Assembly: GCA_039802145.1 (NCBI GenBank)
Contig: JBDRWA010000003.1
Coordinates: 1 to 42,175, forward strand
Source of the DNA: a candidate division WOR-3 bacterium
GTDB lineage: Bacteria > Hydrothermota > Tepidihabitantia > SM23-42 > JAOAFX01
Length of the DNA stretch: 42,175 bases
Direction of reading: 5' to 3'
The notes under the pieces were generated by a model, which did no database searches, was not told where the DNA came from, and saw only the letters and a list, made by a program, of their open reading frames with translations. The translations under genes and the position numbers were made by a program. Positions 1 through 39,083 of the stretch are shown here, in pieces (position 1 is the first letter of the stretch; every line of letters starts with the position of its first letter).

Positions 1-2238
1 TGCAGTATACAATTTCTCGCGCACCTTTGAAATCTTTGTGTAGAATGCCTGAGCAATCTTTTCATTTATTTCTATCGGCGTAGTGTAATTAACCGGGAAC
101 GGGTCTCTGGGAGTAAGGGTTGAAAACATTACGACCTCTGCCCTTTCATCAATTGCTGGTTGTTTAACAATGTTTGCTGGTTCAAATCCGTGGATTTCAT
201 AACGCGGGGTCATTATCTCTTTTTCCAGAGTAAAATAAACCTTTTCCAGCCCCGGCTGTAATTCACTCACTGCAAAGACTGCCTCATCAACGATTGCCAG
301 ACAGAGTGCTGCGATCTTAGGTCTGCCATTTCTGTCGGTAATCTTAAATACGATCTCACCATCCTCACCAGGTAGATACTCTTTTTTATTTGGTTCTGCT
401 TTTATCACCAAATCATTTGCCCCGTGAATATAGCAGAATCTTGTATCACGAATGATATCTGACCCCGGAGTAACTATATATGCGTGCAACCAGATTGAAC
501 CCGTAATATCTGGTGTCAGTTGCAGTTGATAATTTCCCTTGCCATTTTTAATCTCAACTGATTTGGTGAGAATAGTTTGATTATCTTTGACAATATCAAG
601 ATAAACTCTACCTGTTTTTTTCGTTGTTAGAAATTCTAAATTGATATTATCACCAACCTTGTATATTCCCCGTTTCATGCGTATTATTATCTGGTCCTGT
701 TCTGTATTTAGAGTAAATTCTTTTTTCACCTCTGCAGCTTCGCCTTTATTATCGGTAACCTTCGCACTAATCTTTATTTTATCATCTTTTGGTTTATATA
801 CAAATTCTGCAACACCATAATCATCGGTCTTGCTGATCAGTTTTGTTCCTTCTATATTTAATTCAACCTGTGCCAGACAGGGCGAACCATCAGGATAATT
901 CGCCACGACATATATTCTGTTTTCAAGATTGGGTTTTAATTGGCCACCTTCCGGCACAATTGCAATATTAATCAGATTCTGCACAACCTTTTTTGTCAAA
1001 GATATCTTTTCACTGTGATTTGCTTTATCAATTACCTCTATATCAAGACGGACAAAGGCATCCCCTTTTTCCAGGGGCTCACCAACAAAGTATTCAGGAA
1101 GTCTATAACTGAGATGATATAAACCATCTTTATTAGTCCTGCCTTCAATGACTGCTTCTTCGTTGAAGCCGATATCAAATTTATATACTGTGATCTTTAC
1201 CTTTCCATCCACGACCGGTTTGCCAAAGAAATACTGGACATCAATGTCTCCTTCAATTCTTTCACCGGGTAAATAGAATTCTTTATCAGTCTTAAGTGTA
1301 ATTTTGAATTTGGGCAGGACATATTTTTCAATCTTTACGGTTTTCTCAGTCTTTTCATTATCAAGGATTGCACGAATCACCCAGTTGCCAAAATTGACCT
1401 CATCAGCAAGTAAAAAAGGTGTATATGCAACGCCGAATTCATCAGTCTTTAATGCCTTTTTAAAAACCTTATTGCCCTTTGCATCTTCAACCTCAAATAT
1501 TATCTCTTTATTCTTCACTGCATTTAGTTTGGGCTTCTGGAGTGACAATGTTCTTATATGGATTGTCTGTCCGGGTTGATAAATTGGCTTATCCGTAACC
1601 AGATATGTTAAATTACCCGTTGTTATTTTAAAACTTGTATTATATTCGTCTTTGCCTAAATCAGAATTTACAATGAATTTTAATTCACCACCCTTTACAT
1701 CCTCTGGTAAATTAAAAGAAACTTCACAGTTACCAAAATAGTCTGTGCTGCCTTCATAAACGGTGCGGTCAGTCTTTTGCCCCTGTAAAACTACCTTTAT
1801 TTTTGCCCCGGTAATAGGCTCTTCAGTCCTTTGATTTTTTACGATAACGCGATATTTTATTAAAGTACCGGAAATAAAATTATCCTGCCCCAAAATTTTA
1901 ACGATCATCTTATCTTGAAGTTGGAATAAAGAATAAACCTTTTCGGTTTTCTTAAATTTTACCTTTATCCTTAAAAGGTCCGGGTCTTCAACTTCTTTTT
2001 TTAATCTTATTTTTGTCGAAAATGAATAATAATCCTTGTTTATGTATATCCATTGGCTGAATTCCCCTATAACATTATCTTCAGGGTCCAATACCCAGAC
2101 TTCACACTTGCCGATTTCTCCTTTTAATCCTTCAAACGGTATATTTAAGGTAAGTTCAGTGCCTTTACCATTGGAACCATTACCGGATATTAGTCCTAAA
2201 GCAAGTATTCCAATGCTCAATGGTAAAAATGATTTCAT
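1..2238 (-). CDS. Alpha-2-macroglobulin family protein (MG2/MG3/A2M_BRD region), 3' part outside window
   Basis: Absent from ORF track. ATG at 2238 with AAGGAGG RBS (2243-2249); frame reads open to position 1. Signal-like N-terminus MKSFLPLSIGILALGLISG. Motifs LVTDKPIYQPGQTIHIR, TDEFGVAYTPFLL, EKYVLPKFKI, LAIVDEAVFAV are typical of A2M. Confidence 0.88.
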   Translation of the reverse strand, partial: MKSFLPLSIGILALGLISGNGSNGKGTELTLNIPFEGLKGEIGKCEVWVLDPEDNVIGEFSQWIYINKDYYSFSTKIRLKKEVEDPDLLRIKVKFKKTEKVYSLFQLQDKMIVKILGQDNFISGTLIKYRVIVKNQRTEEPITGAKIKVVLQGQKTDRTVYEGSTDYFGNCEVSFNLPEDVKGGELKFIVNSDLGKDEYNTSFKITTGNLTYLVTDKPIYQPGQTIHIRTLSLQKPKLNAVKNKEIIFEVEDAKGNKVFKKALKTDEFGVAYTPFLLADEVNFGNWVIRAILDNEKTEKTVKIEKYVLPKFKITLKTDKEFYLPGERIEGDIDVQYFFGKPVVDGKVKITVYKFDIGFNEEAVIEGRTNKDGLYHLSYRLPEYFVGEPLEKGDAFVRLDIEVIDKANHSEKISLTKKVVQNLINIAIVPEGGQLKPNLENRIYVVANYPDGSPCLAQVELNIEGTKLISKTDDYGVAEFVYKPKDDKIKISAKVTDNKGEAAEVKKEFTLNTEQDQIIIRMKRGIYKVGDNINLEFLTTKKTGRVYLDIVKDNQTILTKSVEIKNGKGNYQLQLTPDITGSIWLHAYIVTPGSDIIRDTRFCYIHGANDLVIKAEPNKKEYLPGEDGEIVFKITDRNGRPKIAALCLAIVDEAVFAVSELQPGLEKVYFTLEKEIMTPRYEIHGFEPANIVKQPAIDERAEVVMFSTLTPRDPFPVNYTTPIEINEKIAQAFYTKISKVREKLYTA

Positions 2239-2291: not shown

Positions 2292-3593
2292 TTATAACTT
2301 TATTTTATTTAGTTCATTCACCGGTTTTGGTCTGCAAAGATAAAATCCCTGTCCATATTTAATTCCAAGGTCTTTCAGGAACTCCAATTCATTTTCATTC
2401 TCTATCCCTTCCGCGATAATTGTAGAATTAATACGATTAGCAAAATTTACAAATGATTTTATCAATTCCTGACGAATGAGATTTTTATCTATATCCCTGA
2501 CCAGGGTCCGGTCGTATTTCAAATAATCAGGTCCTATCTCGCTAATCCTTTCCAGCGTTGAATACCCCACACCTACATCATCAAGGGCTATCTTTAATCC
2601 TCTGCCTTTTGTCCTGACCAGTATCTCCTGATAGGTACCATAGTGGGGAATAGCAAATTTCTCAGTGATCTCAATGACGACACGATTATCTTTAACTCTA
2701 CATTCAGAAAGAAAATCAACAAAATGGTTATCAAGCAATCTCGGTATCTGGTCCGGAGTAATATTCAAAAATATTAATGAATTAGAATTAAGTTTGGATG
2801 CCTCCCTTATTGCATTATAGAGACACAATTCTTCAACCTTTGGTAGTAATTCATACCTTGCCGCGAATGTAAATATGGTATCAGGGTCTTCAAAGAAAGA
2901 ATCTTTTGGCCCACGACTGAGTGCCTCATAACCATAGATTGTTCCATCTCTTAAGTTAAATATAGGTTGATAAACCGTATAGATTGCCTTATTATCCAGC
3001 ATCTTCATTAATTCCGAGTAAAGTTCTTTTTCTTTCAATTTATCGGGATAATGGGCGGCATATTTTAAATCCTCAATCGCATGATAAAGAAGTCTCTCGG
3101 TTCTAACCATTGGGTCAAGCCTTATGATTTGATAACTTGTATGCAAATCAATTCTTTCTATTACCTCCTTATGTCCAAATTCATTTTTTATTACTTCAAC
3201 CTTATTCCTGAATTGCTCTGACAGGGTACTTAAATATGTTTTATCAACCAATCCACCGGATGAATTTTTGGTCAAAAAGATAAAAAAACCATCACCCATT
3301 ATTGAAGAAATGGCGATCAATGCTGAACGGGGAATTAGTTTGCCAATTTCTCCCATTACACATATTGTAAAAAGTTTTATCAGTTCGTCATAAACCTCCC
3401 ATCCAAACACCGGTTCAATCCTTTCCTGGTCACCTATTGAAAGGTACAAAATTCCAATTATCTTTTCTTTTTCAATAATCCTTCTCAAATCTTCTAATAC
3501 ACCATAGACCGTAGGGAGACCGCTTGCACGATCATAAAGATTAACGCGGTATTTATATAATTCAGATTGAACCTTTTCTATTTCATTATTCAT
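2292..3593 (-). CDS. EAL-domain c-di-GMP phosphodiesterase with N-terminal degenerate GGDEF domain
   Basis: EAL motifs YQPI, YEALSRG, FLNI, IEITE, LDDVGVGYS, KYDR, AEGIE, GQGF intact. N-terminus has DRASGLP and MGDGF, a degenerate GGDEF signature. Confidence 0.9.
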   Translation of the reverse strand: MNNEIEKVQSELYKYRVNLYDRASGLPTVYGVLEDLRRIIEKEKIIGILYLSIGDQERIEPVFGWEVYDELIKLFTICVMGEIGKLIPRSALIAISSIMGDGFFIFLTKNSSGGLVDKTYLSTLSEQFRNKVEVIKNEFGHKEVIERIDLHTSYQIIRLDPMVRTERLLYHAIEDLKYAAHYPDKLKEKELYSELMKMLDNKAIYTVYQPIFNLRDGTIYGYEALSRGPKDSFFEDPDTIFTFAARYELLPKVEELCLYNAIREASKLNSNSLIFLNITPDQIPRLLDNHFVDFLSECRVKDNRVVIEITEKFAIPHYGTYQEILVRTKGRGLKIALDDVGVGYSTLERISEIGPDYLKYDRTLVRDIDKNLIRQELIKSFVNFANRINSTIIAEGIENENELEFLKDLGIKYGQGFYLCRPKPVNELNKIKL

Positions 3594-3976
3594 AGATTAT
3601 TCTTTTTAATGTAAAGAAAAATATCATTTATCCTTTTTAGCAGTTCGTCAGCAGTGAACGGTTTACAGATATAATCAACTGCACCTTCCTTTAATCCAAT
3701 GATCTTATCATAGGCGTCCACCCTTGCAGTCAACATCGCAACCGGGATCTTTTTTAATTGCTCTTCCGATTTCAACATCTGCATCATCTGCCAACCATCA
3801 ATTTCAGGAAGCATAATATCAAGCAATATAAGATCTATCTTTTCGGACTGAAGGATTGCCAGCCCCTGTTTGGCATCCTTTGCCTTAAAGACCTTATACC
3901 CTCCATCCTTCAACACCCTTTCCACAAAATCAAGGATGTCGTCTTCATCATCAATGACCAGAATATTTTTATTCAT
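3590..3976 (-). CDS. Single-domain response regulator (receiver only)
   Basis: VIDDE, LLDIMLP (phospho-Asp), LTA, KPF; 128 aa with no output domain. Confidence 0.93.
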   Translation of the reverse strand: MNKNILVIDDEDDILDFVERVLKDGGYKVFKAKDAKQGLAILQSEKIDLILLDIMLPEIDGWQMMQMLKSEEQLKKIPVAMLTARVDAYDKIIGLKEGAVDYICKPFTADELLKRINDIFLYIKKNNL

Positions 3977-5447
3977 TCTGCCCTCCCTGGGGTATGATAA
4001 AATAAAAGCTTGTCAACCCCTCTTTGCTCTCTGCCCATATCTTCCCTTGATGGGCTTCAATGATATTTTGGGCAATAGTTAGTCCAAGACCAATGCCCCC
4101 ATATTTTCTTGAAGTTGTGGCATCGACCTGATAAAAAGGTTCAAAAATTTTTCCGACCTGATCTGGAGGGATAGTTGCACCATAATTTGAGATTTTAAAT
4201 CTAAAATATTCTTGGTTTTCTTTATTTATCATATCAGTTTTGAAAATTATTTCTGTTTCAGGAGTGGTAAATTTTATGCTGTTGTTTATCAAATTTTCAA
4301 TCACGGTTCTAAGATTATCTTTGTCAGCGTAGAGCCTTTTTGCTTCAATTGATTTTTTTATCACAAGACCCTTCAGTTTGATTTCGGGTGTAAAATTATT
4401 TATAACATCATCTATTAACTCATTAATATCAAACTCTTCAGGCTTTAATTTGATTCCTTCCATTGTATATTTAGAGATCAAAAGGAGAGAATGGATTTCT
4501 TTATTTAACCGCTCTAAATTTCTGCGGATTATTTCAAGGCTATGCTTCTGGTCCTGGCTTAGAGGACCCATCTTTTCCTTCTCCATATAATCTACATAAC
4601 CAATTGAGGCAGTTAGCGGTGTCCTCAGTTCGTGGGAAATATTGGCAAGAAGGTGAGTCTTCTGGGCATCCCTTTTTCTCAATTCGTCAATTAAATTATT
4701 CAATTCCCTTATATTATCCCTTATTTTTTCGGTCATAAAGTTGAATGCATTTGCAAGGTCTTCAAATTCATCACCAGTTTTAATTCTAATTAATTGGTTG
4801 AAATCACCCCGGGCAATCTTTCTTGCGGCGTCGGTTAAGACTTTTAAATGACCGGTGATTCGATTAGAAGCGATGATTGAAAGTATTATACTCAAAATTA
4901 TTGTGGATACTCCCATCAATACACTACTTAATACAACTGCGGATAATTCTTTCTTTAATCGCACAAGAGAAAAGTAATAGATAATAGAATAATTGTGAAC
5001 ACCATACTCATCTATATATGGAGCAACAATACAGACTTCATTATCAGTATGGATATTTATCTCCATCTTCTTTATATTCTCAAGAACAAATTTGTCATTC
5101 GTATATTTGATATCAGATACTGAGAAAAAGCCCTTCTCATACAACTCCATATCATATTGGATTCTACCTGAAAGGTCAATGATCTGAATATTTTTCAAAT
5201 CACGATTCAAATCCTTCTGGCTAATAACAATTGAACGGAATTTAAAAAAAGCATTTTTAAAATAACGTAAAAAAGACTCGCCGACCTTGTCGTTTGATAA
5301 TTGGACAAACATTTCAGCACCGGTAACAATTTCGGTCTGTAACTCTCTCACCCGATATGAGGCCATAAATACTCCCATTATACTGAAGACCACAATAATG
5401 ATACAAGAGAGCACAAATATCAATTTAGTTTTAAATGAAAGTCTCAT
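3969..5447 (-). CDS. Membrane sensor histidine kinase (2 TM, periplasmic domain, HAMP, HisKA, HATPase_c)
   Basis: Two hydrophobic segments, HAMP-like IARGDFN..TGDEFEDLANAFN, SHELRTPL, ENLINNSIKF, IFEPFYQ, GIGLGL. Confidence 0.93.
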   Translation of the reverse strand: MRLSFKTKLIFVLSCIIIVVFSIMGVFMASYRVRELQTEIVTGAEMFVQLSNDKVGESFLRYFKNAFFKFRSIVISQKDLNRDLKNIQIIDLSGRIQYDMELYEKGFFSVSDIKYTNDKFVLENIKKMEINIHTDNEVCIVAPYIDEYGVHNYSIIYYFSLVRLKKELSAVVLSSVLMGVSTIILSIILSIIASNRITGHLKVLTDAARKIARGDFNQLIRIKTGDEFEDLANAFNFMTEKIRDNIRELNNLIDELRKRDAQKTHLLANISHELRTPLTASIGYVDYMEKEKMGPLSQDQKHSLEIIRRNLERLNKEIHSLLLISKYTMEGIKLKPEEFDINELIDDVINNFTPEIKLKGLVIKKSIEAKRLYADKDNLRTVIENLINNSIKFTTPETEIIFKTDMINKENQEYFRFKISNYGATIPPDQVGKIFEPFYQVDATTSRKYGGIGLGLTIAQNIIEAHQGKIWAESKEGLTSFYFIIPQGGQNE

Positions 5448-6919
5448 TTGCTAAACTCTATTTCTTTCAAGCGTATTGTTTGATCAATTCTGGGTTTGAA
5501 TTCAATATCCTTAGAGATACCGTATAATCTTGGTTCCCATACGATCGGAACAGCCGGCATATCATTCAGTAGAACGATTTGTATTTCTTTAATTAGATTT
5601 AATCTTTGTTCGAGGTCTTCGGTTTTGAAAGCAAGGTCAATAAGACTATCAACTATCGGTTTTGAAAATCCTGAACGATTCATTAAACCAGTTCTTTTAT
5701 CAGGATTAAATGTGTAGAAAAATGGGGCAATCATGCCGCCAAGCCCGTCTAAATTTGTGACCAAAGACGAAATCAAAATAAAATCAAACTTCCTTTCTTC
5801 AACAACTCTCCAGAATTCTTCAATATCAAGGGCAGTTTCTTTCACATCAATTCCTATTGCATGTAAATAACCACCAATTTTACTTGCGATGCGTTGGACC
5901 GGCTTGCCATAATAGAAAGAAATCTTTGTTTTACCAAAGTCTTTAATTAGCAATCTTGCACTATCAGGATTATATTGAAGTGGTGGGAGATCGGAGCAAT
6001 AGCCAATCAACCCTTTGGGAACGAATTGATTCGCAGGTTCAGCAAGTCCATAATATAATTGATTATCAATCTCCTGTCTATTTATTGCCATTGACAATGC
6101 CTTACGGAAATCTTTATTATTAAATGGTTGCTTTTTTAAATTAAATTGAAGATACCTTGTTGCTACAATAGCTATTATCTCCATTTTTATACTATCTTTC
6201 AGTTTATAGTATAAATCTACTGGCAAACCATACATAATACAGAATTCCGAACTTTTAAGCAATTTTATACGGTCTTCTAATTCAGGTATAAATCTGAATA
6301 CACCTTTTACAATCAGAGGTTTCTTCCCCCAATAATTTTGATACAAATCACAAATGATAGAATCTTCCGAAACAAAAACATTTCTGTACGGGCCAGTGCC
6401 CACCGGATTTGAAAAATCATTATAGCCATTGGGAATAATATATAGTAAATCGAGTTCGTTTAAAAGAGAATAGTAGGGAAATTTTGTCTTTATTACAATT
6501 CGGTAAGAATTTATAGCATATATCGTATCAATTACTCTAACAAGACCAGACCTCTCGCTTTTTTTTTCACGAATCGGTCGGTATAATGAATATACAACAT
6601 CTTCGGCCTTCATTTCTTTGCCATTATGGAATAATACATTTTCTCGTAGGTCAAATATCCAGGTTAAACTATCGCTTTGATACCAATTTTTGGCAAGACA
6701 AGGGGTTATTCTCAAATCGGGTGTATAGTCAACAAGGGCTTCATAAATATTAGAAAGGATAGAAATAGTTACTATTTCATTACGCAGATGTGGATCAAGT
6801 GTTCTTGGTGGATGGTCATATAAAACAGTAATTGTATATGTTCTCCTATGGCAGAAGATTGAGAATAATAGGCAGTATATTAGAAATAAAAATTTAATTT
6901 TTTTTATATTATTCATCAT
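5444..6919 (-). CDS. Family 5 (OppA/DppA/NikA-like) solute-binding protein, probable lipoprotein
   Basis: TLDPH, NIYEALV, FDLRENVLFHNGKEMKAEDVVYS, PVGTGPY, RKALSMAINR; signal peptide ending SIFC. Confidence 0.88.
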   Translation of the reverse strand: MMNNIKKIKFLFLIYCLLFSIFCHRRTYTITVLYDHPPRTLDPHLRNEIVTISILSNIYEALVDYTPDLRITPCLAKNWYQSDSLTWIFDLRENVLFHNGKEMKAEDVVYSLYRPIREKKSERSGLVRVIDTIYAINSYRIVIKTKFPYYSLLNELDLLYIIPNGYNDFSNPVGTGPYRNVFVSEDSIICDLYQNYWGKKPLIVKGVFRFIPELEDRIKLLKSSEFCIMYGLPVDLYYKLKDSIKMEIIAIVATRYLQFNLKKQPFNNKDFRKALSMAINRQEIDNQLYYGLAEPANQFVPKGLIGYCSDLPPLQYNPDSARLLIKDFGKTKISFYYGKPVQRIASKIGGYLHAIGIDVKETALDIEEFWRVVEERKFDFILISSLVTNLDGLGGMIAPFFYTFNPDKRTGLMNRSGFSKPIVDSLIDLAFKTEDLEQRLNLIKEIQIVLLNDMPAVPIVWEPRLYGISKDIEFKPRIDQTIRLKEIEFSK

Positions 6920-8412
6920 TTTCGTAATTTTATTTCCTTTATAATTATCAACTCATCCAGCCTTGGATTCCAATCTATTCTATCTGAAATACCATATATC
7001 TCCTTTTCCCAGACCACCGGAATTTTCGGCAGGTCTTTTAGTAAAATTTTCTGGGCATCACTGATGAGTTTTGCACAAGTGCGTAAATCATAGATACGAA
7101 TCATTTTCTCAATTATAAGGTCCAGTTCTTTGTTTGAATAATTACTATTATTTAAATTCCCTAATCCTTTTTTAGTATCTTTTGTATGAAAAGAACTGCG
7201 CAATATACTCACACCTTCATTGGAAAGCGGAACACTTCCAATAAGGTAAAAATCAGACCTTTTGCTATTTATTTTTTCCCAGTATTTATCCACAGAAAGT
7301 GGGTGGGCAGTTATCTTAATTCCAATTTTTTCCATATCTTCAATGATTGCCCTTGCAATAAAGGCGCGGGATTCTGCAAAATCAAAGTCAATCACCGGGA
7401 GTTCGCCAATCTTTTTTAACAACTTCCTTGCACTATCAGGATTATAGATAAATTGTGGTAGATTATAATCAAAGCCAAATAACCCCTGACTTATAAACTG
7501 GTTTGCGGGAACCGCAAAATTTTGATACACATTTTCTGCAAGGAATTGCCTATTTATACCAAGGTTTAGTGCCTGACGAAATTCGGGTTGATTAAATGGA
7601 AATTTACTCAAATCCATTTCTATGTACCTGACTGCGACACCGGAAGTTGCAATAATCCTTCCTGCATTTGATATTTGCTCTAAATATGTTAGGGGGATAA
7701 ATGTTATTATATCAGCCTTTTTTTCTCTCAATAATTCAATTCTTTTTGTCACTTCAGGAACAAAAATGATTGTAGCACGCTCAAAATCAATTCTGTTATT
7801 CCAGTAATTACTAAATCTCACCAGTTCAATCTTATCTTTACCTAAATTTTTTACTCGGTAGGGACCGGTCCCACAGAATATCCTATCCGATGGATTAAAT
7901 TTTTCAGGAATGATAAAAATATTTGCGAGGTCATACAATAAAAAAGGATTGGGCATCTTCAAACGAACCAAAATCTTATTTGTATCCTCAGGAATTATAG
8001 TGTCAACATAACCCTTGAGTGCAGTATATTGTGAGCCGGGAAGATTAAAAGGTCGATAAATTGAGTATATTACATCAGATGAACTTAATTTCTTATCATT
8101 ATGGAATCGCACATTATCTCTCAGGTAAAAACGCCAGGTGAGGGAATCGAGTTTTTCCCAGTATTCAGCGATACCGGGGATTATCTTCATATTCGGGTCA
8201 ACTGTTACAAGTGCTTCATATATGTTGCTGAGAATTGAAATTGTAACAATCTGTCTCCGTAAGTGAGGATCAAAACTTGCAGGCATTGCATCATATACGA
8301 TCGTAATTTGGTTATTCTGATGAGAACAACCTATGAGAAAAAGATTAAAAGATATCAATATAAAACAAAAAATCACTTTGACATTTGACATTTGGCATTT
8401 GAAATTTTTCAT
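6916..8412 (-). CDS. Family 5 solute-binding lipoprotein (paralogue of the adjacent one)
   Basis: Lipobox LIGC; SFDPH, NIYEALV, LRDNVRFHN, GTGPY, RQALNLGINR. Start overlaps the hutU stop (TAATG). Confidence 0.88.
   Translation of the reverse strand: MKNFKCQMSNVKVIFCFILISFNLFLIGCSHQNNQITIVYDAMPASFDPHLRRQIVTISILSNIYEALVTVDPNMKIIPGIAEYWEKLDSLTWRFYLRDNVRFHNDKKLSSSDVIYSIYRPFNLPGSQYTALKGYVDTIIPEDTNKILVRLKMPNPFLLYDLANIFIIPEKFNPSDRIFCGTGPYRVKNLGKDKIELVRFSNYWNNRIDFERATIIFVPEVTKRIELLREKKADIITFIPLTYLEQISNAGRIIATSGVAVRYIEMDLSKFPFNQPEFRQALNLGINRQFLAENVYQNFAVPANQFISQGLFGFDYNLPQFIYNPDSARKLLKKIGELPVIDFDFAESRAFIARAIIEDMEKIGIKITAHPLSVDKYWEKINSKRSDFYLIGSVPLSNEGVSILRSSFHTKDTKKGLGNLNNSNYSNKELDLIIEKMIRIYDLRTCAKLISDAQKILLKDLPKIPVVWEKEIYGISDRIDWNPRLDELIIIKEIKLRK
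8377..8404. repeat. Degenerate heptamer tandem repeat TTTGACA/TTTGACA/TTTGGCA/TTTGAAA inside the SBP signal-peptide n-region
   Basis: Read directly; encodes FKCQMSNVK on the minus strand. Confidence 0.75.
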
Positions 8413-10091
8413 TATTTTTCCATTGGTATCTTTATCTTATATTTTTTTGCAAATTCAATCGCCTCTTTATATCCTGCATCACAGTGCCTCGCCACACCAA
8501 TCCCGGGGTCATTGGTCAATACCCTTTCAATCCTTTTATCCATTGTCTCTGTACCGTCACAGACTAAAACCTGTCCGGCATGGATTGAATAACCAATCCC
8601 CACTCCCCCACCATGGTGCACTGAAACCCAAGATGCACCAGATGCAGTATTCAAAAGCGCATTAAGAATGGGCCAATCTGCAATCGCATCCGAACCATCA
8701 ATCATTCCTTCAGTCTCCCGATACGGTGATGCAACTGAACCACAATCAAGGTGGTCTCGCCCAATGACTATCGGCGCCTTTAATTTACCTTCCCGGACGA
8801 GTTGATTTATTCTCAGACCAAATTTATCCCTTTCTCCATAACCAAGCCACATAATCCTTGCGGGCAATCCCTGAAATGGAATTTTTTTCTGGGCAAGTTC
8901 AATCCACCTGCGGATCGAAGGATTATCACCAAACATTTTTAGTACTTCACTATCTAATAAATAAATATCTTCTTTTTCACCGGATAGTGTTGCCCAGCGA
9001 AAAGGACCTTTCCCTTCGCAAAATAGTGGTCTTATATATTCAGGCACAAATCCGGGAATTTTAAACGGATCTTCAACTCCTGCCCTTTTTGCCTGACCAC
9101 GAATATTATTTCCATAATCAAAGGCAATTGCGCCTCTTTTCTGCATCTCAATCATCGCTTCCATTTGTTTTGCAATTGATTCCAGGGCCCGCTTTTTATA
9201 CTCTTCAGGGTTTCTACTCCGAAGTGCAAGCGCCTCATCAAGACTCATACCACCGGGCACGTAGCCATTTAATTCGTCATGGGCAGAGGTTTGGTCAGTC
9301 AGGACATCGGGGATGATATTCCTCTTTACAAGTTCTGGTTCAACATCTGCACAATTCCCCACGAGTCCGATTGAGCGTGGAATCTTTTTTTCAACCGCTT
9401 CAAATACCAACTTCAATGCCTCATCAAGATCATCTACCATCATATCACAGAAACCCTGTTTTACCCTGCGTTCAATCCTTTTGGGGTCAACCTCAATATC
9501 AAGTATCACACCTTCATTCATTGTAACGGCAAGGGGTTGGGCACCACTCATTCCACCCATACCACCGGTTAAAACCCATTTGCCTTTTAATGTTCCGCCA
9601 AAATGTTTTCTTGCACAGGCAGCAAAGGTTTCATAGGTCCCCTGAATGATCCCCTGGGTTCCAATATAAATCCAGCTCCCGGCAGTCATCTGTCCATACA
9701 TTATCAGACCAAGCATTTCCAGTTTTCTAAAATAATCCCAGTTTGCCCAGGCGGGTACCAATAAAGAATTTGCAATCAACACCCTTGGTGCATATTCAAA
9801 TGTTTTAAAGATCCCAACCGGCTTTCCTGATTGTATCAGTAGGGTTTCGTCATTTTCCAATGATTTGAGCGATTCTACAATCTTTTTGTAGCATTCCCAA
9901 TTTCTTGCCGCCCTACCACTTCCACCATAAACAATCAATTCTTCAGGTCTCTCGGCAACATCGGGGTCAAGGTTATTTTGTAGCATTCGTAAGGCGCCTT
10001 CCTGTTGCCAGGATTTACAAATCAATTTTGAACCCCGGGGCGCCCTTACTGGTTGATAAGAAAACTCCTTTAAGGTCATTGTTTTCTTCAT
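8412..10091 (-). CDS. hutU: Urocanate hydratase
   Basis: [64 protein letters not shown]; GGAGG RBS at 10096-10100. Confidence 0.97.
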
Positions 10092-10107
10092 CAGACCTCC
10101 GTATATA

Positions 10108-10135
10108 ATTTTAATCCAATTTTATTGTATGTCAA
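10108..10135 (-). promoter_or_regulatory. sigma70-type promoter of hutU operon, TTGACA-16-TAAAAT
   Basis: -35 at 10135-10130, -10 at 10113-10108, followed by a short leader with GGAGG. Confidence 0.7.
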
Positions 10136-17690: not shown

Positions 17691-17698
17691 AGGTGACA

Positions 17699-19189
17699 AT
17701 GGAAGCTAAGATCTCATTAAAATCCGCAGGGATTATTGCTGGAGTTGCTGCGATTGTTGCCTTCTTATTCGGGTTGATTATTAGTACAGGGATTCCTGGT
17801 ATTTCAAACAAAACCGAAGCAAGTCAGGGCACGGTTGGATTAAACCCAATCGTTACCGAACAAGGAGAGAGTCCTTTTACAAGGGTTGCAGAGATGGTAT
17901 CACCCGCAGTTGTAAATATCTCAGCGGAAAGGACCGTGAAGACCGGGTTTGAAGATTTTGAATGGAATTTCCGTGGTCCGTTTGAAGACTTCTTCCGTGA
18001 TTTCTTCAAAAATTTTCCTCGTGGCGATACCAAAACCAAAACACTCGGCTCTGGATTTATTATCTCTGAAGATGGCTATGTGGTAACAAATCACCATGTC
18101 ATAAAGAATGCGACAAATATAATAATTCGGCTTACAAACAAAAAAGAATACAAAGGCAATGATGTCAAGATAATCGGTTCTGATTCACGGACTGATGTGG
18201 CTCTGTTAAAAATAGAGACAAAAGAAAGACTTCCTTACTTAAAATTTGGTGATTCTGATAAAATTAAAGTTGGCGACTGGGTAATGGCTGTTGGCAATCC
18301 TTTCAATCTTGAAGGAACGGTTACCGTCGGTGTGATATCAGCAAAAGGCAGGAGTCATATTCCATTGAGCGAAGGACCGGATTTACAGAATTTTTTGCAG
18401 ACAGATGCGGCGATAAATCCTGGTAATTCAGGAGGTCCATTATTAAACCTTCAAGGTGAAGTAATAGGCATTAATACGGCAATTACATCAACAAGTGGTG
18501 GTAATATCGGAATTGGTTTTGCGATACCTATAAATCTCGCAAAGAATATTATTGAAGAACTGAAGTCAAAAGGTAAGGTTACAAGAGGTTATCTTGGCGT
18601 ATATCTTGAAGATTTGACCGAGGATATGAAGAATGCCTTGAATCTTTCATCCCTTGATGGGGTTATGATTAATGAGGTAATTGCTAATTCACCTGCCGAC
18701 AATGCTGGAATAAAAGAAGGTGATGTGATTATTGAATATGATGGGAAGAAGGTGACTGATGTCCAGTCATTCAGAATTATGGTTGCATCAACGACTCCTG
18801 GCAGGACAGTAAGGTTAAAATTGATAAGGAATGGGAAGGAAATGGATTTGAAAGTGAAGATTGGTGAAATGAAGGAAGAGGTTGCTGGTGTGGTTGGAGA
18901 AAAACAGGGGGCTGAACTTGGTTTGCAAGTTGTGGATATTGACAGTCCTGATGCAAAAGTATATAATATTAGCGCTAAAAAAGGGGTTGTCGTGACGAAT
19001 GTTGAATCCGATTCTCCTGCTGGTAATGCTGGACTACAAACTGGCGATGTCATCATTAGTATAGACAACAAGAAGATTGATGATATATCTGATTTCAAGA
19101 AGGCAGTAAAGGAATTAAAGAAGGGAAAGCCAGTGATCTTCCAGATTCAACGAGGTGAGAGAAAAAGGTATGTAGCAGTGACACCATAG
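17699..19189 (+). CDS. degP: DegP/DegQ (HtrA, Do) serine endoprotease with two PDZ domains
   Basis: LGSGFII, TNHHV, TDVAL, QTDAAINPGNSGGPL, two PDZ repeats; GAGGTG RBS before ATG 17699. Confidence 0.93.
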   Translation: MEAKISLKSAGIIAGVAAIVAFLFGLIISTGIPGISNKTEASQGTVGLNPIVTEQGESPFTRVAEMVSPAVVNISAERTVKTGFEDFEWNFRGPFEDFFRDFFKNFPRGDTKTKTLGSGFIISEDGYVVTNHHVIKNATNIIIRLTNKKEYKGNDVKIIGSDSRTDVALLKIETKERLPYLKFGDSDKIKVGDWVMAVGNPFNLEGTVTVGVISAKGRSHIPLSEGPDLQNFLQTDAAINPGNSGGPLLNLQGEVIGINTAITSTSGGNIGIGFAIPINLAKNIIEELKSKGKVTRGYLGVYLEDLTEDMKNALNLSSLDGVMINEVIANSPADNAGIKEGDVIIEYDGKKVTDVQSFRIMVASTTPGRTVRLKLIRNGKEMDLKVKIGEMKEEVAGVVGEKQGAELGLQVVDIDSPDAKVYNISAKKGVVVTNVESDSPAGNAGLQTGDVIISIDNKKIDDISDFKKAVKELKKGKPVIFQIQRGERKRYVAVTP

Positions 19190-25125: not shown

Positions 25126-25934
25126 AGTTTGGCGACCACACCCTCCACAATTTTTATCAATTTGGGCTCGGCCCTTTTTGCCGCCAGGAGTATCTTTACA
25201 ATGCTTGCAGGCTGGAGCGCGTCTGGAATTCCCATATCAGTAATCACTGAAAGCCCGAGCACCTTTATTCCCAAGTACCTTGCCATAATCACCTCAGGGA
25301 CAGTGGACATTCCTACCGCATCAGCCCCAATCGTTCTAAGAAAACGGTACTCAGCACGCGTCTCAAGATTCGGGCCCGGAACAGCAACATAAACTCCCTT
25401 TTTTATGAAAATACCTAATCTCTGTGCAACAGTCTCGGTGAGCCTGACAAGTCTTGGGTCATAACAATTGAACATATCAGGAAATCTCGGTCCCATCTTC
25501 AATTCATCATAACCCCGTAAGGGATTATCAAAAATAAGATTGATATGGTCGGTAATGATCATTATATCACTTGCTGAGAATTCAGGGTTAAGACCCCCGG
25601 CAGCATTTGAAATTATAAGGTATTTTACACCCATTTTCTTCATTATAATTAGTGGATATACAATTTCCTTAGCACTGTACCCTTCATAATAATGGAATCT
25701 GCCCTGCATCACCATTACCGCACGATTACCAAGATGCCCAAAGAGCAATCTTCCTTTATGGAATTCAACTGTCGAAACTGGAAAATGGGGGATTTCAGTA
25801 TAATCAAATGAAGTTTTAATCTTAATACATTTTACCAATCTACCAAGTCCAGTTCCAAGTATGATTCCGATTTCAGGCTTTAGATCGGTTCTCTCACATA
25901 GATAATCCAGGGTTTTTTTTATTTTCGTCTTCAT
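25122..25934 (-). CDS. Purine-nucleoside phosphorylase (trimeric, PunA/XapA family)
   Basis: IILGTGLG, QGRFHYYEG, SNAAGGLN, GPNLETRAE, AVGMSTVPE. Confidence 0.95.
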   Translation of the reverse strand: MKTKIKKTLDYLCERTDLKPEIGIILGTGLGRLVKCIKIKTSFDYTEIPHFPVSTVEFHKGRLLFGHLGNRAVMVMQGRFHYYEGYSAKEIVYPLIIMKKMGVKYLIISNAAGGLNPEFSASDIMIITDHINLIFDNPLRGYDELKMGPRFPDMFNCYDPRLVRLTETVAQRLGIFIKKGVYVAVPGPNLETRAEYRFLRTIGADAVGMSTVPEVIMARYLGIKVLGLSVITDMGIPDALQPASIVKILLAAKRAEPKLIKIVEGVVAKL

Positions 25935-26380
25935 TTCTTCTCTAATCTTTCAAGCAAACGAAGATAGGATTCAAGAAGCCCACGAAATTCAGAGACGAGC
26001 AGCAATTTCTGGTGCTCCACCATTTTTGTCTCTTCTTTTATCCGCGCCAGTTCAGCCTGCGCTTCTCGTAAAAATCGCTGTGCTTCAACGCGGGCATTAG
26101 CAATGATTGTTTCTGCCTCTTTTTTTGCTCCTTCTCTAAGTTCTTCAGTCGCCTTCTGCGTTGTAGTCAATGTATCCTGCAATATCTTCTCCATTCTCCG
26201 GTAGTCTTCAATCTTTGCATCAAGGTCTTTAACCTTCTCAGCAAGAGCGGCATTCTCTCTTAACAGACCTTCAAGTTCGTTTGAGATCATCTCCAGAAAT
26301 GAACGAACTTCATGTGGGTCATATCCACGCAGGGCTTTTCTAAATTCCTGTTTCCGAATTTCCAAAGGAGTTATCGCCAT
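25931..26380 (-). CDS. divIVA: DivIVA domain protein
   Basis: ITPLEIRKQEFRKALRGYDPHEV..FLE followed by coiled coil; AGGAGG RBS. Confidence 0.9.
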   Translation of the reverse strand: MAITPLEIRKQEFRKALRGYDPHEVRSFLEMISNELEGLLRENAALAEKVKDLDAKIEDYRRMEKILQDTLTTTQKATEELREGAKKEAETIIANARVEAQRFLREAQAELARIKEETKMVEHQKLLLVSEFRGLLESYLRLLERLEKK

Positions 26381-26391
26381 CATACCTCCTT

Positions 26392-36962: not shown

Positions 36963-39083
36963 TTATCTTTCTGATAAATTTAAACCGAGTTTTTCCATAA
37001 TAAAAGACCAAACATCAACATCTTCGTCAATCTGTTCAGAAAGTGTTGTTCCACCACCATGACCAGCATATCTGCGCACAATAAGCAGAATTGGTTCTTT
37101 ACCGCTCTGATTTTCTTGGACCTTTGCTGCCATCTTCATTGCGTGCATTGGATGGCATCTTGGATCATTATCGCTTGCTTCAAAAAGAACCGCAGGATAT
37201 TTACACCTTTTGACATTGTGATACGGCGAATATTTAATTAAGTATTCAAATTGTTCCGGATTATCAGCACTACCATATTCTTCTGCCCAGATATTCGCAT
37301 AACTCAATTTATGATACCTGAGCATATCAAGTAAAGGGACACCCACATAGACAACTTTAAATAATTCCGGTGCTTGGACTAAAGCTGCTCCCATAAGAAG
37401 CCCACCATTGCTTGCACCACCAATTGCAAGATGCTTGGGACTTGTGTATCTATTTTCAATGAGATATTTTGCTGCATATATAAAATCATCAAAGACATTC
37501 TGTTTTTTATCAAGCATCCCTGCCTTATGCCATTCATCGCCGAATTCTCCACCTCCACGCAGATTCGGAATTGCGATCATCCCTCCGGATTCAAGAAAAA
37601 CCGCATAGTTTGTTGAAAAATAAGGTCCCACCGATATTTTGAACCCCCCATAGCCGGTTAAATAAGTCGGATTTTTCCCATTATTTTGTATATTTTTATG
37701 ATGCACAAGAAACATTGGAATTTTTGTTTTGTCCTTGGAACTATACCAGACCTGTTCTACAACAAAATCAGATAGGTCAATATCAATAGGCGGACGGTGA
37801 TACATAACCAATCTATCATTTTCAAAATCGTACTTATATATCGTTGGTGGATGTGTAAAAGATGTAAATGATAACCAAACATCTGGTTTTGACCAGTATC
37901 CCCAGACCCAGGCATTGCCAAGGGTTGGTAGTGGCAAATCTCTGATGTATTTCCCTTCAATTGTATAAATCTTTATAATCTTGTAGGCATTATGAGTATA
38001 AACCGCGTAAAGATGTCCACCAATTGCATCTATGTATTCAAGATTATCAGTCGTTTCGGGAATAATTTCTATCCAGTATTTCTTATCTAATTTATCAATT
38101 GTGGTTGAGAATACCCTTCCATTTGGTGCATTGAGGTTAGTTTTGATTATCAAACGTTCATCAACCAATATTATAGTATACTGGGCATCAAATCCTGTAA
38201 CAATTGGTTTCATTGGCTCTTCAGAATCCAACTCTTGAATATAGACTTCATCTTTATAGAACATCGAACGGTAAAAAAGAATGTATTTGCCATCTTCGGT
38301 AACAACTGCATTGTGGAAATATTCTTTTATCTCAGTATGAAAAAATATCTTTTTATCTTCGGAACCCGGCGTGCCAAGTCTATGTAAATACACAGCATCC
38401 CAGTAGTTTTCTTCACCCTCAGGTACAGTCCCTTTCAGCGGATTTGCAGTGTAATAAAAGCCTGAATTGTCAGGAAGCCAGGATATTCCACTCTGACGCC
38501 AGCCCTGAAGCGAATCAGGTAAGATGCTACCTGTTTCTACATCCATAATTTTTATAATTGGATTTTCTTTTCCTGCATCTTCAATTCCATAAGCAACGTA
38601 CTTACCGTCGCGTGATGGATAGACAGCTCCAAGTGTTTTTAACCCCCATTGGTTGGGGTCGAGCAAAAGGACTGGTTCTGTTGTTTCATTCTCTTTTGTA
38701 TAATATGCCCATCTCTCCCATCCTTTTTTTATTGCGGAATAAAAAATTCTTTCACCAACCAAGACTTTATGCGGCGCGGATTCATCATCGTATCGTCTTA
38801 ATTCAGTAAACCTTTTCTTTAGCCATTCCCGGTGAGAAATTTTATTAAGAAATGCCCGCGATAATCTATTCTGCGCTTCAACCCATTCTTTAACTTTGTG
38901 ATCATTGAAATCTTCTAACCATTGATATTCATCAATAATAATTTTACCATAAAATGTATCTTCAACTGGATTCTTTTTAGTCTCAGGATAGATTATTTTC
39001 GTATATTTCATAGTACACATAAATGCCATTAAAAAAAAAGCATAAAAACCAAATATATAGGGCTTTTTCGCACTATTTTTCAA
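36963..39083 (-). CDS. Prolyl oligopeptidase (S9A), probably exported
   Basis: DEYQWLED, GYGGF, NLRGGGEFG, KQNVFDDF, GASNGGLL, DPRC, GHG catalytic motifs; hydrophobic N-terminus. Confidence 0.95.
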   Translation of the reverse strand: MKNSAKKPYIFGFYAFFLMAFMCTMKYTKIIYPETKKNPVEDTFYGKIIIDEYQWLEDFNDHKVKEWVEAQNRLSRAFLNKISHREWLKKRFTELRRYDDESAPHKVLVGERIFYSAIKKGWERWAYYTKENETTEPVLLLDPNQWGLKTLGAVYPSRDGKYVAYGIEDAGKENPIIKIMDVETGSILPDSLQGWRQSGISWLPDNSGFYYTANPLKGTVPEGEENYWDAVYLHRLGTPGSEDKKIFFHTEIKEYFHNAVVTEDGKYILFYRSMFYKDEVYIQELDSEEPMKPIVTGFDAQYTIILVDERLIIKTNLNAPNGRVFSTTIDKLDKKYWIEIIPETTDNLEYIDAIGGHLYAVYTHNAYKIIKIYTIEGKYIRDLPLPTLGNAWVWGYWSKPDVWLSFTSFTHPPTIYKYDFENDRLVMYHRPPIDIDLSDFVVEQVWYSSKDKTKIPMFLVHHKNIQNNGKNPTYLTGYGGFKISVGPYFSTNYAVFLESGGMIAIPNLRGGGEFGDEWHKAGMLDKKQNVFDDFIYAAKYLIENRYTSPKHLAIGGASNGGLLMGAALVQAPELFKVVYVGVPLLDMLRYHKLSYANIWAEEYGSADNPEQFEYLIKYSPYHNVKRCKYPAVLFEASDNDPRCHPMHAMKMAAKVQENQSGKEPILLIVRRYAGHGGGTTLSEQIDEDVDVWSFIMEKLGLNLSER

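Follow-up and report, generated by a model that had tools for sequence, protein, structure and literature searches.

A 42,175-nucleotide stretch of DNA from a candidate division WOR-3 bacterium (positions 1 to 42,175 of contig JBDRWA010000003.1, assembly GCA_039802145.1; hereafter the window) encodes six minus-strand open reading frames (ORFs) with overlapping ends: hutU, for urocanate hydratase, two family-5 solute-binding proteins (SBP1 and SBP2), a sensor histidine kinase, a stand-alone receiver (REC) and a protein that joins a degenerate GGDEF domain to an EAL-type phosphodiesterase domain for cyclic di-GMP (c-di-GMP). We propose, at a probability of about 0.6, that the kinase receives its signal from the binding proteins and passes it through the receiver to the EAL enzyme, with c-di-GMP hydrolysis as the output. 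The five genes from SBP1 to the EAL gene are referred to below as the cassette.

The source genome is metagenome-assembled (2.0 Mb in 150 contigs, 85.6% complete), and the window is its contig C3. Window DNA is present in six hot-spring metagenome DNA runs from three studies; no RNA run is among the listed sequencing runs that contain the stretch.

Results

Signalling domains and their conserved residues

The H-, N- and G-boxes of the kinase (H272, N389 and G451/G453/G455) are invariant in 28 aligned sequences, as is P143 within its sensor domain, where G149 and H151 come close to invariance. No Pfam family, Cache models included, matches the ~140-residue periplasmic domain at E<=10. A model built from the same 28 sequences (predicted local distance difference test score, pLDDT, 86.2) contains helices at residues 5–62 and 162–198, with a long helix and a PAS-like sheet, and Foldseek matches the sensor domain to those of WalK (4ywz), KinD (4jgo), DcuS (3by8) and CitA (1p0z), at E-values of 5e-5 to 6e-3, target-normalised TM scores of 0.47–0.70 and identities of 9–13%. 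The modelled periplasmic domain is thus described here as single-Cache/PDC-like in fold.

A preliminary description of this DNA had called the receiver output-less, which is borne out by Response_reg as its only Pfam domain. Its phospho-acceptor pocket is intact: all 25 aligned orthologues have D53 and K105, and at least 90% of them D9 and D10; T83 was read from the translation. In the EAL protein, residues E223-A-L-x-R227, N277, E308/E311, D338-D339, K359, E395 and Q415 are invariant in 22 orthologues, and on these residues the EAL domain is predicted to be catalytically intact. The GGDEF position is degenerate in all 22 (MGDGF here; KVGGF, RAGKF, RGESF and others elsewhere), and the N-terminal 192 residues have no Pfam match at E<=10, PF00990 included. 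The degenerate region is covered by the NCBIfam PRK10060 alignment (residues 21–430), and a model of the whole protein (pLDDT 86.8) aligns over ~430–450 columns with the solved GGDEF-EAL tandems of PA0575 (5m3c; E 5.6e-28), MorA, RbdA, DosP and LapD. The earlier claim of a dead GGDEF domain fused to an intact EAL domain agrees with these data, in which only the GGDEF fold is kept. Longer homologues of the protein are mostly CBS-GGDEF-EAL proteins, and 5 of 59 carry a fused receiver.

This gene is the only EAL match in the genome, beside 11 GGDEF and 10 HD_5 (HD-GYP-type) matches. Throughout the family of the source genome (f1) there is one EAL locus per genome, and all EAL matches lie at the cassette save a contig-edge fragment in one genome (G003); the two family genomes without EAL are also without the kinase. 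One of the 11 GGDEF proteins, a 334-aa MEDS-GGDEF protein, is also encoded in the window, where its gene adjoins a DivIVA gene.

Conservation of the cassette across the phylum

The kinase served as anchor for a survey of gene neighbourhoods. A search of 40 related genomes recovered full-length orthologues in 13, and all 13 loci were inspected (close set). The kinase sensor (residues 1–190) matches 31 of 272 genomes of the phylum at E<=1e-5, 17 of them outside the close set; 16 distant loci were counted, and G066 was left out, its sensor match lying in a 141-aa frame that is a fragment.

The order hutU-SBP1-SBP2-kinase-REC-EAL is found in 9 of the 13 close loci. Two more (G007 and G009) have the same order with a single binding protein, and in G039, from another family, hutU-SBP-kinase-REC is followed by an unrelated 288-aa ORF. 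In the remaining locus (G015, L023:508-3180), the end of the kinase ORF matches the N-terminus of the EAL protein with no receiver between them, and EAL is in three fragments; the contig is short and begins just upstream of the kinase, the assembly comprises ~470 contigs, and the locus is either decaying or an assembly error.

The gene immediately upstream of the kinase encodes a binding protein in 12/12 informative close loci and in 10 of the 16 distant ones (G228, G116–G119, G121, G124, G126, G057 and G058), and the two genes mostly overlap or abut. Downstream, the receiver follows the kinase in 14/16 distant loci and EAL follows the receiver in 13/16 (one is cut by a contig end, and in G119 an insertion-sequence transposase stands there instead). 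REC and EAL are adjacent in 11/13 close and 13/16 distant loci, or 24 of 29 kinase loci, and usually overlap or closely abut. The survey therefore finds the cassette, whose conservation in relatives the preliminary description had made a test of its proposal, in both close and distant genomes, at kinase identities down to ~28%.

EAL occurs in 72 of the 272 phylum genomes, almost always as a single gene of ~400–460 residues, and in 28 of the 31 kinase-bearing ones. We also examined 12 loci centred on EAL: 10 from genomes missed by the sensor query, and the contigs that bear EAL in G057 and G058. In every one EAL is immediately preceded by a short receiver gene (divergent in two cases, both in family f24), and in six the receiver is in turn preceded by a kinase. 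G057 and G058 carry SBP-kinase on one contig and REC-EAL-mutL on another. Two stable pairs thus make up the locus, SBP-kinase and REC-EAL, and they usually stand together; the receiver-EAL pair is the oldest, and nothing else in the locus is as well conserved. Many lineages of the phylum have mutL immediately after EAL, often with an overlap (L111, L114, L115, L116, L126, L127, L130, L132–L134 and L136).

Beyond the phylum genomes, a profile of the kinase sensor matches 637 cluster representatives at E<=1e-3 (404 at E<=1e-10) among 1.84 billion proteins. Ten were sampled among the 150 matches listed, and seven of these are histidine kinases or hybrid kinases. One of the seven, P0211, evidently from a different organism, has SBP_bac_5 and the same sensor kinase in one 900-aa frame; its identity is 31% to our kinase, along the full 492 residues, and 25% to SBP1. 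A contig scan with the kinase N-terminus gave two full-length relatives, the other 78 kept loci matching the query in part and mostly at its HAMP-proximal end. A metagenome profile scan gave nine loci, all with the same cassette; at least two apparently come from the same organisms as G011 and G039 and hence are not independent.

The binding proteins

SBP1 and SBP2 score far above the gathering cut-off of PF00496 (32.4 bits) and are 37–38% identical to each other. Both N-termini have a hydrophobic leader and a lipobox cysteine, and Cys29 is invariant in 29 aligned binding proteins; the two proteins are probably exported and extracytoplasmic. In a tree SBP1 clusters with the binding proteins that other lineages have in single copy, and SBP2 belongs to a separate clade of nine rows on longer branches. 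SBP2 is a faster-evolving duplicate limited to family f1, and its duplication on longer branches suggests a second specificity. The tree follows family taxonomy, and the binding protein has therefore been inherited together with the kinase.

The nearest solved relatives are 5u4o, GsiB/YliB, HbpA and DppA for SBP1 and 5u4o, NikA and GsiB for SBP2; taken together as a profile, the 29 binding proteins come nearest to 5u4o, GsiB/YliB, HbpA, DppA and AapF. For both proteins the best NCBIfam match is a nickel-type binding-protein model, and all equivalog models stay far below cut-off (best 154 versus 600 bits). Our best guess from these similarities is a short peptide-like ligand. Complex prediction of SBP1 (residues 30–498) with the kinase periplasmic domain (31–168), run without controls, gave scores of 0.05 and 0.01. 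The closest longer homologue of SBP1, P0060, is a 1184-aa protein in which MMPL (PF03176) is fused to SBP_bac_5 (E 1.6e-62, 98% coverage); other longer homologues of SBP1 include a hybrid kinase and a Ser/Thr kinase, each with SBP_bac_5 domains.

Absence of Dpp/Opp-type transporter markers

The cluster contains no permease or ATPase gene by ORF and Pfam scan, as the preliminary description had stated. It had also raised the case that permeases lie elsewhere in the genome. The genome has six SBP_bac_5 genes versus four BPD_transp_1 permeases, which form a Pst pair and a UgpAE-like pair, and the permeases of G005, a 97% complete genome, are two Pst sets (one by NCBIfam, one inferred by size) and a UgpAE-like pair by size. 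The ATPase marker oligo_HPY (PF08352) is found in 0/16 family genomes, this one included and 11 of them at least 90% complete, and neither it nor the permease marker BPD_transp_1_N (PF19300) is found in any of the 31 kinase-bearing genomes; phylum-wide the two occur in 25/272 and 20/272 genomes, respectively. With no Dpp/Opp-type ATPase or permease marker in the 31 genomes, the binding proteins are therefore without a cognate transporter, and since this transporter family is absent from all of them, any ligand response must be signalling.

The other four SBP_bac_5 genes of the genome also depart from the usual form. Three encode membrane-less proteins of ~1050 aa, with a coiled-coil N-terminal half that carries a chemoreceptor-tip-like motif and a C-terminal SBP_bac_5 domain. 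The fourth encodes a 687-aa lipoprotein with a full SBP_bac_5 domain, a Pro/Thr-rich linker and a TonB C-terminal domain (PF03544, 71.9 bits), and SBP_bac_5 ORFs of similar size (~690–716 aa) occur in G063, G064, G224, G249 and G041. All six SBP_bac_5 genes of the genome are non-canonical.

Operon structure and the place of hutU

All six ORFs lie where the preliminary description had placed them, with the overlaps that it reported. Read from the sequence, the hutU/SBP1 junction is TAATG, a one-base overlap; the SBP1/SBP2, SBP2/kinase and REC/EAL junctions are all ATGA; and kinase and REC overlap by eight bases. Ahead of hutU is a sigma-70-type promoter, TTGACA-16-TAAAAT, followed by the ribosome-binding site (RBS) GGAGG. 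In 12 aligned upstream regions TTGACA is invariant and the -10 element and GGAGG are nearly so, and the remaining spacer and everything further upstream are unconserved. This is the best promoter-like site of the region, which holds 56 such sites versus 37.1 +/- 6.5 in shuffles. Because promoter-like sites are common in this AT-rich DNA, the argument for the promoter is its conservation and not the scan. Within the six genes we found no gap and no convincing terminator: the nine terminator-like sites found (5.5 +/- 2.5 expected) are weak throughout and lie within coding sequence. These data agree with the proposal of one promoter for all six genes. A search of the 42-kb window against Rfam gave no match that reaches a gathering score; the hutU leader has no match even at E<=1, and no riboswitch is evident there.

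The first gene scores 919.9 bits against TIGR01228 (cut-off 375), and thiourocanate models stay below their own cut-offs; hutU is a true urocanase and a genuine catabolic gene. It stands directly upstream of the cassette in 12/12 informative close loci from three genera, with 81–97% identity among relatives, far above that of the neighbouring genes. It adjoins the cassette in none of the 16 distant loci and is elsewhere, on other contigs, in 5/5 distant genomes checked. hutU joined the operon only in family f1 and in G039, a genome of a neighbouring family. hutH is on contig C45 (NF006871, 535.9 bits, cut-off 524); hutI was not found in this incomplete genome and is present away from the cassette, on other contigs, in 15/16 family genomes.

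Genes around the cassette

Beyond the EAL gene, an alpha-2-macroglobulin-like gene starts 53 bases after the EAL stop codon with a strong RBS of its own. A gene of this kind (~1560 aa) directly follows EAL in all 10 loci of genus g1 and only there, with no match in G014. It is a genus-level neighbour outside the core, and may be co-transcribed with the cassette. The window also encodes a DegP-like protein and a prolyl-oligopeptidase, and the three genes together fit a protease- and peptide-centred lifestyle.

Table 1 Coordinates of the operon, its promoter and other features named in the text. Positions refer to the window unless a contig is given.
Feature	Position	Strand	Basis
Sigma-70-type promoter TTGACA-16-TAAAAT, then RBS GGAGG, ahead of hutU	10108..10135	-	11/12 positions match; alignment of 12 upstream regions
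hutU, urocanate hydratase, 559 aa, first operon gene	8412..10091	-	TIGR01228; Pfam Urocanase_N, Urocanase, Urocanase_C
SBP1, family-5 solute-binding lipoprotein, 498 aa, lipobox LIGC	6916..8412	-	SBP_bac_5, 197.4 bits
SBP2, paralogous family-5 binding protein, 491 aa	5444..6919	-	SBP_bac_5, 190.6 bits
Sensor histidine kinase, 492 aa: transmembrane helix 1 (TM1), single-Cache/PDC-like periplasmic domain (~31–168), TM2, HAMP, HisKA (His272), HATPase_c	3969..5447	-	Pfam; model
Stand-alone receiver, 128 aa, pocket D9, D10, D53, T83, K105	3590..3976	-	Response_reg, 100.2 bits; no other domain
Degenerate GGDEF (MGDGF) and predicted EAL c-di-GMP phosphodiesterase, 433 aa	2292..3593	-	EAL by Pfam, 167.9 bits, residues 194–422
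Alpha-2-macroglobulin-like gene, cut by window end	1..2238	-	Pfam MG2, MG3, A2M_BRD
DegP-like gene	17693–19189		
DivIVA gene	25931–26383		
MEDS-GGDEF protein, 334 aa	26392–27396	-	
Prolyl-oligopeptidase gene	36963–39083		
Three chemoreceptor-like SBP_bac_5 proteins	C28:9094-12237, C145:1888-5142, C1:35509-38655	+	G000 contigs
SBP_bac_5-TonB C-terminal lipoprotein	G000 contig C73:8671-10734 = L029:3672-5735	-	Pfam

Discussion

In the mechanism that we propose, one conserved promoter would transcribe hutU-SBP1-SBP2-kinase-receiver-EAL as a translationally coupled unit, with hutU at its head in this family so that urocanase and sensor would be made together. SBP1 and SBP2, exported and with no Dpp/Opp transporter to serve, would serve as receptors and nothing else, for small and probably peptide-like ligands. 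Docked on the periplasmic, single-Cache-like part of the kinase, they would alter its autophosphorylation at His272. The phosphoryl group would then move to Asp53 of the receiver, and the phosphorylated receiver would bind the dead-GGDEF/EAL protein and change its phosphodiesterase activity, as a split version of REC-EAL enzymes. The EAL protein would in turn alter the c-di-GMP pool made by the 11 GGDEF proteins of the genome. The checks named in the preliminary description and run here, on conservation in relatives and on permeases elsewhere, came out in favour of its core inference. The link between binding protein and kinase is supported by their adjacency in close and distant loci, by a binding-protein tree that follows taxonomy, and by G057 and G058, where the two stay together apart from REC-EAL; the link between receiver and EAL is supported by their adjacency, by their conserved residues and by the presence of EAL in 28 of the 31 kinase-bearing genomes.

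Several observations weigh against this scheme. No binding protein adjoins the kinase in 6/16 distant loci (G063, G064, G067, G068, G224 and G249), where kinase-REC-EAL is followed by mutL, and G063, G064 and G041 have no stand-alone binding protein of ~500 aa anywhere in their genomes. The kinase can therefore work without the binding protein, and may bind ligand directly via its Cache-like domain. G063 keeps a remnant of ~100 residues just upstream of the kinase (L111:7644-7946, kinase at 7999), 41% identical to the SBP2 N-terminus; it points to a binding protein lost only recently from that family, and counts in favour of the SBP-kinase link. At the other end of the proposed pathway, six of the 12 EAL-centred loci have no kinase adjacent to REC-EAL, and the G039 genome (79% complete) has hutU-SBP-kinase-REC yet no EAL match. 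The ~10 HD_5 proteins are other possible c-di-GMP phosphodiesterases, and PilZ has no match in the 85.6% complete source genome. P0211 was rejected as proof of a true SBP-kinase fusion, since a periplasmic domain N-terminal to TM1 would place the sensor in the cytoplasm; its frame may run through two neighbouring genes, and it counts, in favour of the link, only as adjacency in another lineage.

A different view of the locus is one in which SBP1 and SBP2 capture nutrients (peptides, glutathione-like compounds or metal chelates) for a non-canonical or unrecognised uptake route, the kinase senses a ligand of its own via the Cache-like domain, and their adjacency reflects co-regulation. Both proteins are indeed most similar to the transport proteins 5u4o, GsiB, DppA, NikA and HbpA; the persistence of kinase-REC-EAL without a binding protein, the MMPL transporter domain of P0060 and the TonB-fused paralogue in the same genome would also suit such a role. 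We consider it unlikely, given the absence of Dpp/Opp markers from all 31 genomes and the retention of the binding protein beside the kinase over deep divergence, even where the pair is separate from REC-EAL. In the part of PMC8050422 drawn on here, genes for kinase-stimulating binding proteins are associated with signalling genes, whereas transport-linked ones are associated with transporters.

A separate question concerns the proposed step from receiver to enzyme. Stand-alone receivers often serve as phosphate sinks or connectors, and this one could do so, or act on another target, while the EAL protein is regulated via its degenerate GGDEF domain (by GTP, for example) or is constitutive; the longer homologues nearest to the EAL protein have CBS domains and not receivers. 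Against this, no other feature of the locus is as well conserved as the adjacency of REC and EAL, kept in 12/12 EAL-centred loci including the six without an adjacent kinase, and Pfam finds no other output domain in the cassette; we regard such an uncoupled receiver as distinctly improbable. Still less probable, in our estimation, is a central role for hutU, with the binding proteins sensing histidine, urocanate or a His-containing ligand and the cassette tuning histidine catabolism. The one-base overlap with SBP1 and the shared conserved promoter, the link kept across three genera and the nickel-type model as best NCBIfam match, far below cut-off as it is, speak for such a role. Against it stand the separation of hutU from the cassette in every distant locus, the positions of hutH and hutI away from it, and the absence from the cassette of any DNA-binding output, by Pfam, that could regulate hut genes. 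We read hutU as a co-expressed passenger and not as part of the signalling mechanism, and the hedge of the preliminary description that it might be an unrelated neighbour was well placed, the gene being linked only in f1 and G039 and located elsewhere in 5/5 distant cassette genomes. It may still hint at the physiological context, namely amino-acid or peptide catabolism.

A broader and more speculative scenario, which we hold to be doubtful though conceivable, is that this phylum-level lineage lost peptide ATP-binding cassette (ABC) import and turned its whole SBP_bac_5 repertoire (in this genome two kinase-feeding, three chemoreceptor-like and one TonB-fused) to signalling or capture. The cassette would then be a master switch, coupling the only EAL phosphodiesterase to peptide or histidine-derived cues that secreted proteases produce outside the cell, via a split REC/dead-GGDEF-EAL complex without a described counterpart.

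All parts of the cassette come from well-known families. The sensing route that we favour would nevertheless be an unusually clean case, in that the cognate transporter family is missing from all 31 genomes and its output is one enzyme, the sole EAL protein of the genome, and is directly assayable. As a natural split form of REC-GGDEF-EAL enzymes, the cassette could show how a receiver controls EAL in trans. It is also a first point of entry to c-di-GMP control in amino-acid degraders of an uncultured hot-spring lineage. A full-text literature search, which did not extend to supplementary files that may list such neighbourhoods, returned no description of an SBP_bac_5-kinase-stand-alone REC-EAL cassette or of the c-di-GMP system of this lineage.

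Comparison with known systems

Among known systems, LuxP-LuxQ has a dedicated binding protein encoded beside its kinase. LuxP-LuxQ and TorT-TorS differ from the cassette in their binding-protein families, in their sensor folds and in their hybrid kinases, which feed Hpt relays to DNA-binding regulators. The likeness to TorT-TorS is that a dedicated binding protein is encoded beside the kinase that it stimulates (PMC8050422, in part, as for all that follows from this source). Binding-protein-stimulated receptors are thought to be widespread, with few characterised; AioS, of the AioX-AioS precedent, is listed among them as sCache-like, and ChiS and MbaA as dCache-like (PMC8050422). CBP-ChiS, the chitin-oligosaccharide binding protein and sensor kinase of Vibrio cholerae, is the one family-5 precedent listed for kinase control; there a PF00496 periplasmic protein controls a membrane kinase through a Cache-like periplasmic domain (PMC8050422), as is proposed for the cassette. 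Unlike the binding proteins here, CBP also serves an ABC transporter, and ChiS is a double-Cache-like, non-canonical DNA-binding kinase with transcriptional output (PMC8050422). The cassette instead has no transporter, a single-Cache-like sensor and a receiver plus EAL enzyme as output.

Direct control of GGDEF-EAL proteins by binding proteins is described for NspS-MbaA and ScrB-ScrC (PMC8050422). NspS-MbaA, also of Vibrio cholerae, resembles the pathway proposed here in linking a signalling-only binding protein to c-di-GMP turnover by a GGDEF-EAL protein; NspS, in contrast, is of the SBP_bac_8 family and binds the periplasmic domain of the membrane GGDEF-EAL protein MbaA directly, with no kinase or receiver between them (PMC8050422). 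On the sensing side, the periplasmic domain of our kinase is predicted to fold like the extracellular PDC/sCache domains of WalK, DcuS, CitA and KinD, which are known or thought to bind ligands directly.

The output side is closest to RocS1-RocR, in which a histidine kinase controls c-di-GMP hydrolysis via a receiver domain; the structure search with the EAL protein matched, among others, RocR (3sy8), and the NCBIfam model for PvrR matches the protein weakly. PvrR and VieA are further kinase-controlled REC-EAL phosphodiesterases. In the RocR type, receiver and EAL share one polypeptide with no GGDEF-like domain, whereas here the receiver is a separate gene phylum-wide and the EAL protein carries a dead GGDEF domain. 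The cassette, in our reading a probable member of the binding-protein-stimulated sensor kinase systems, appears to be a new arrangement of known themes, bringing together a transporter-less family-5 binding protein, a kinase with an sCache-like sensor, a receiver that stands alone and a dead-GGDEF/EAL protein.

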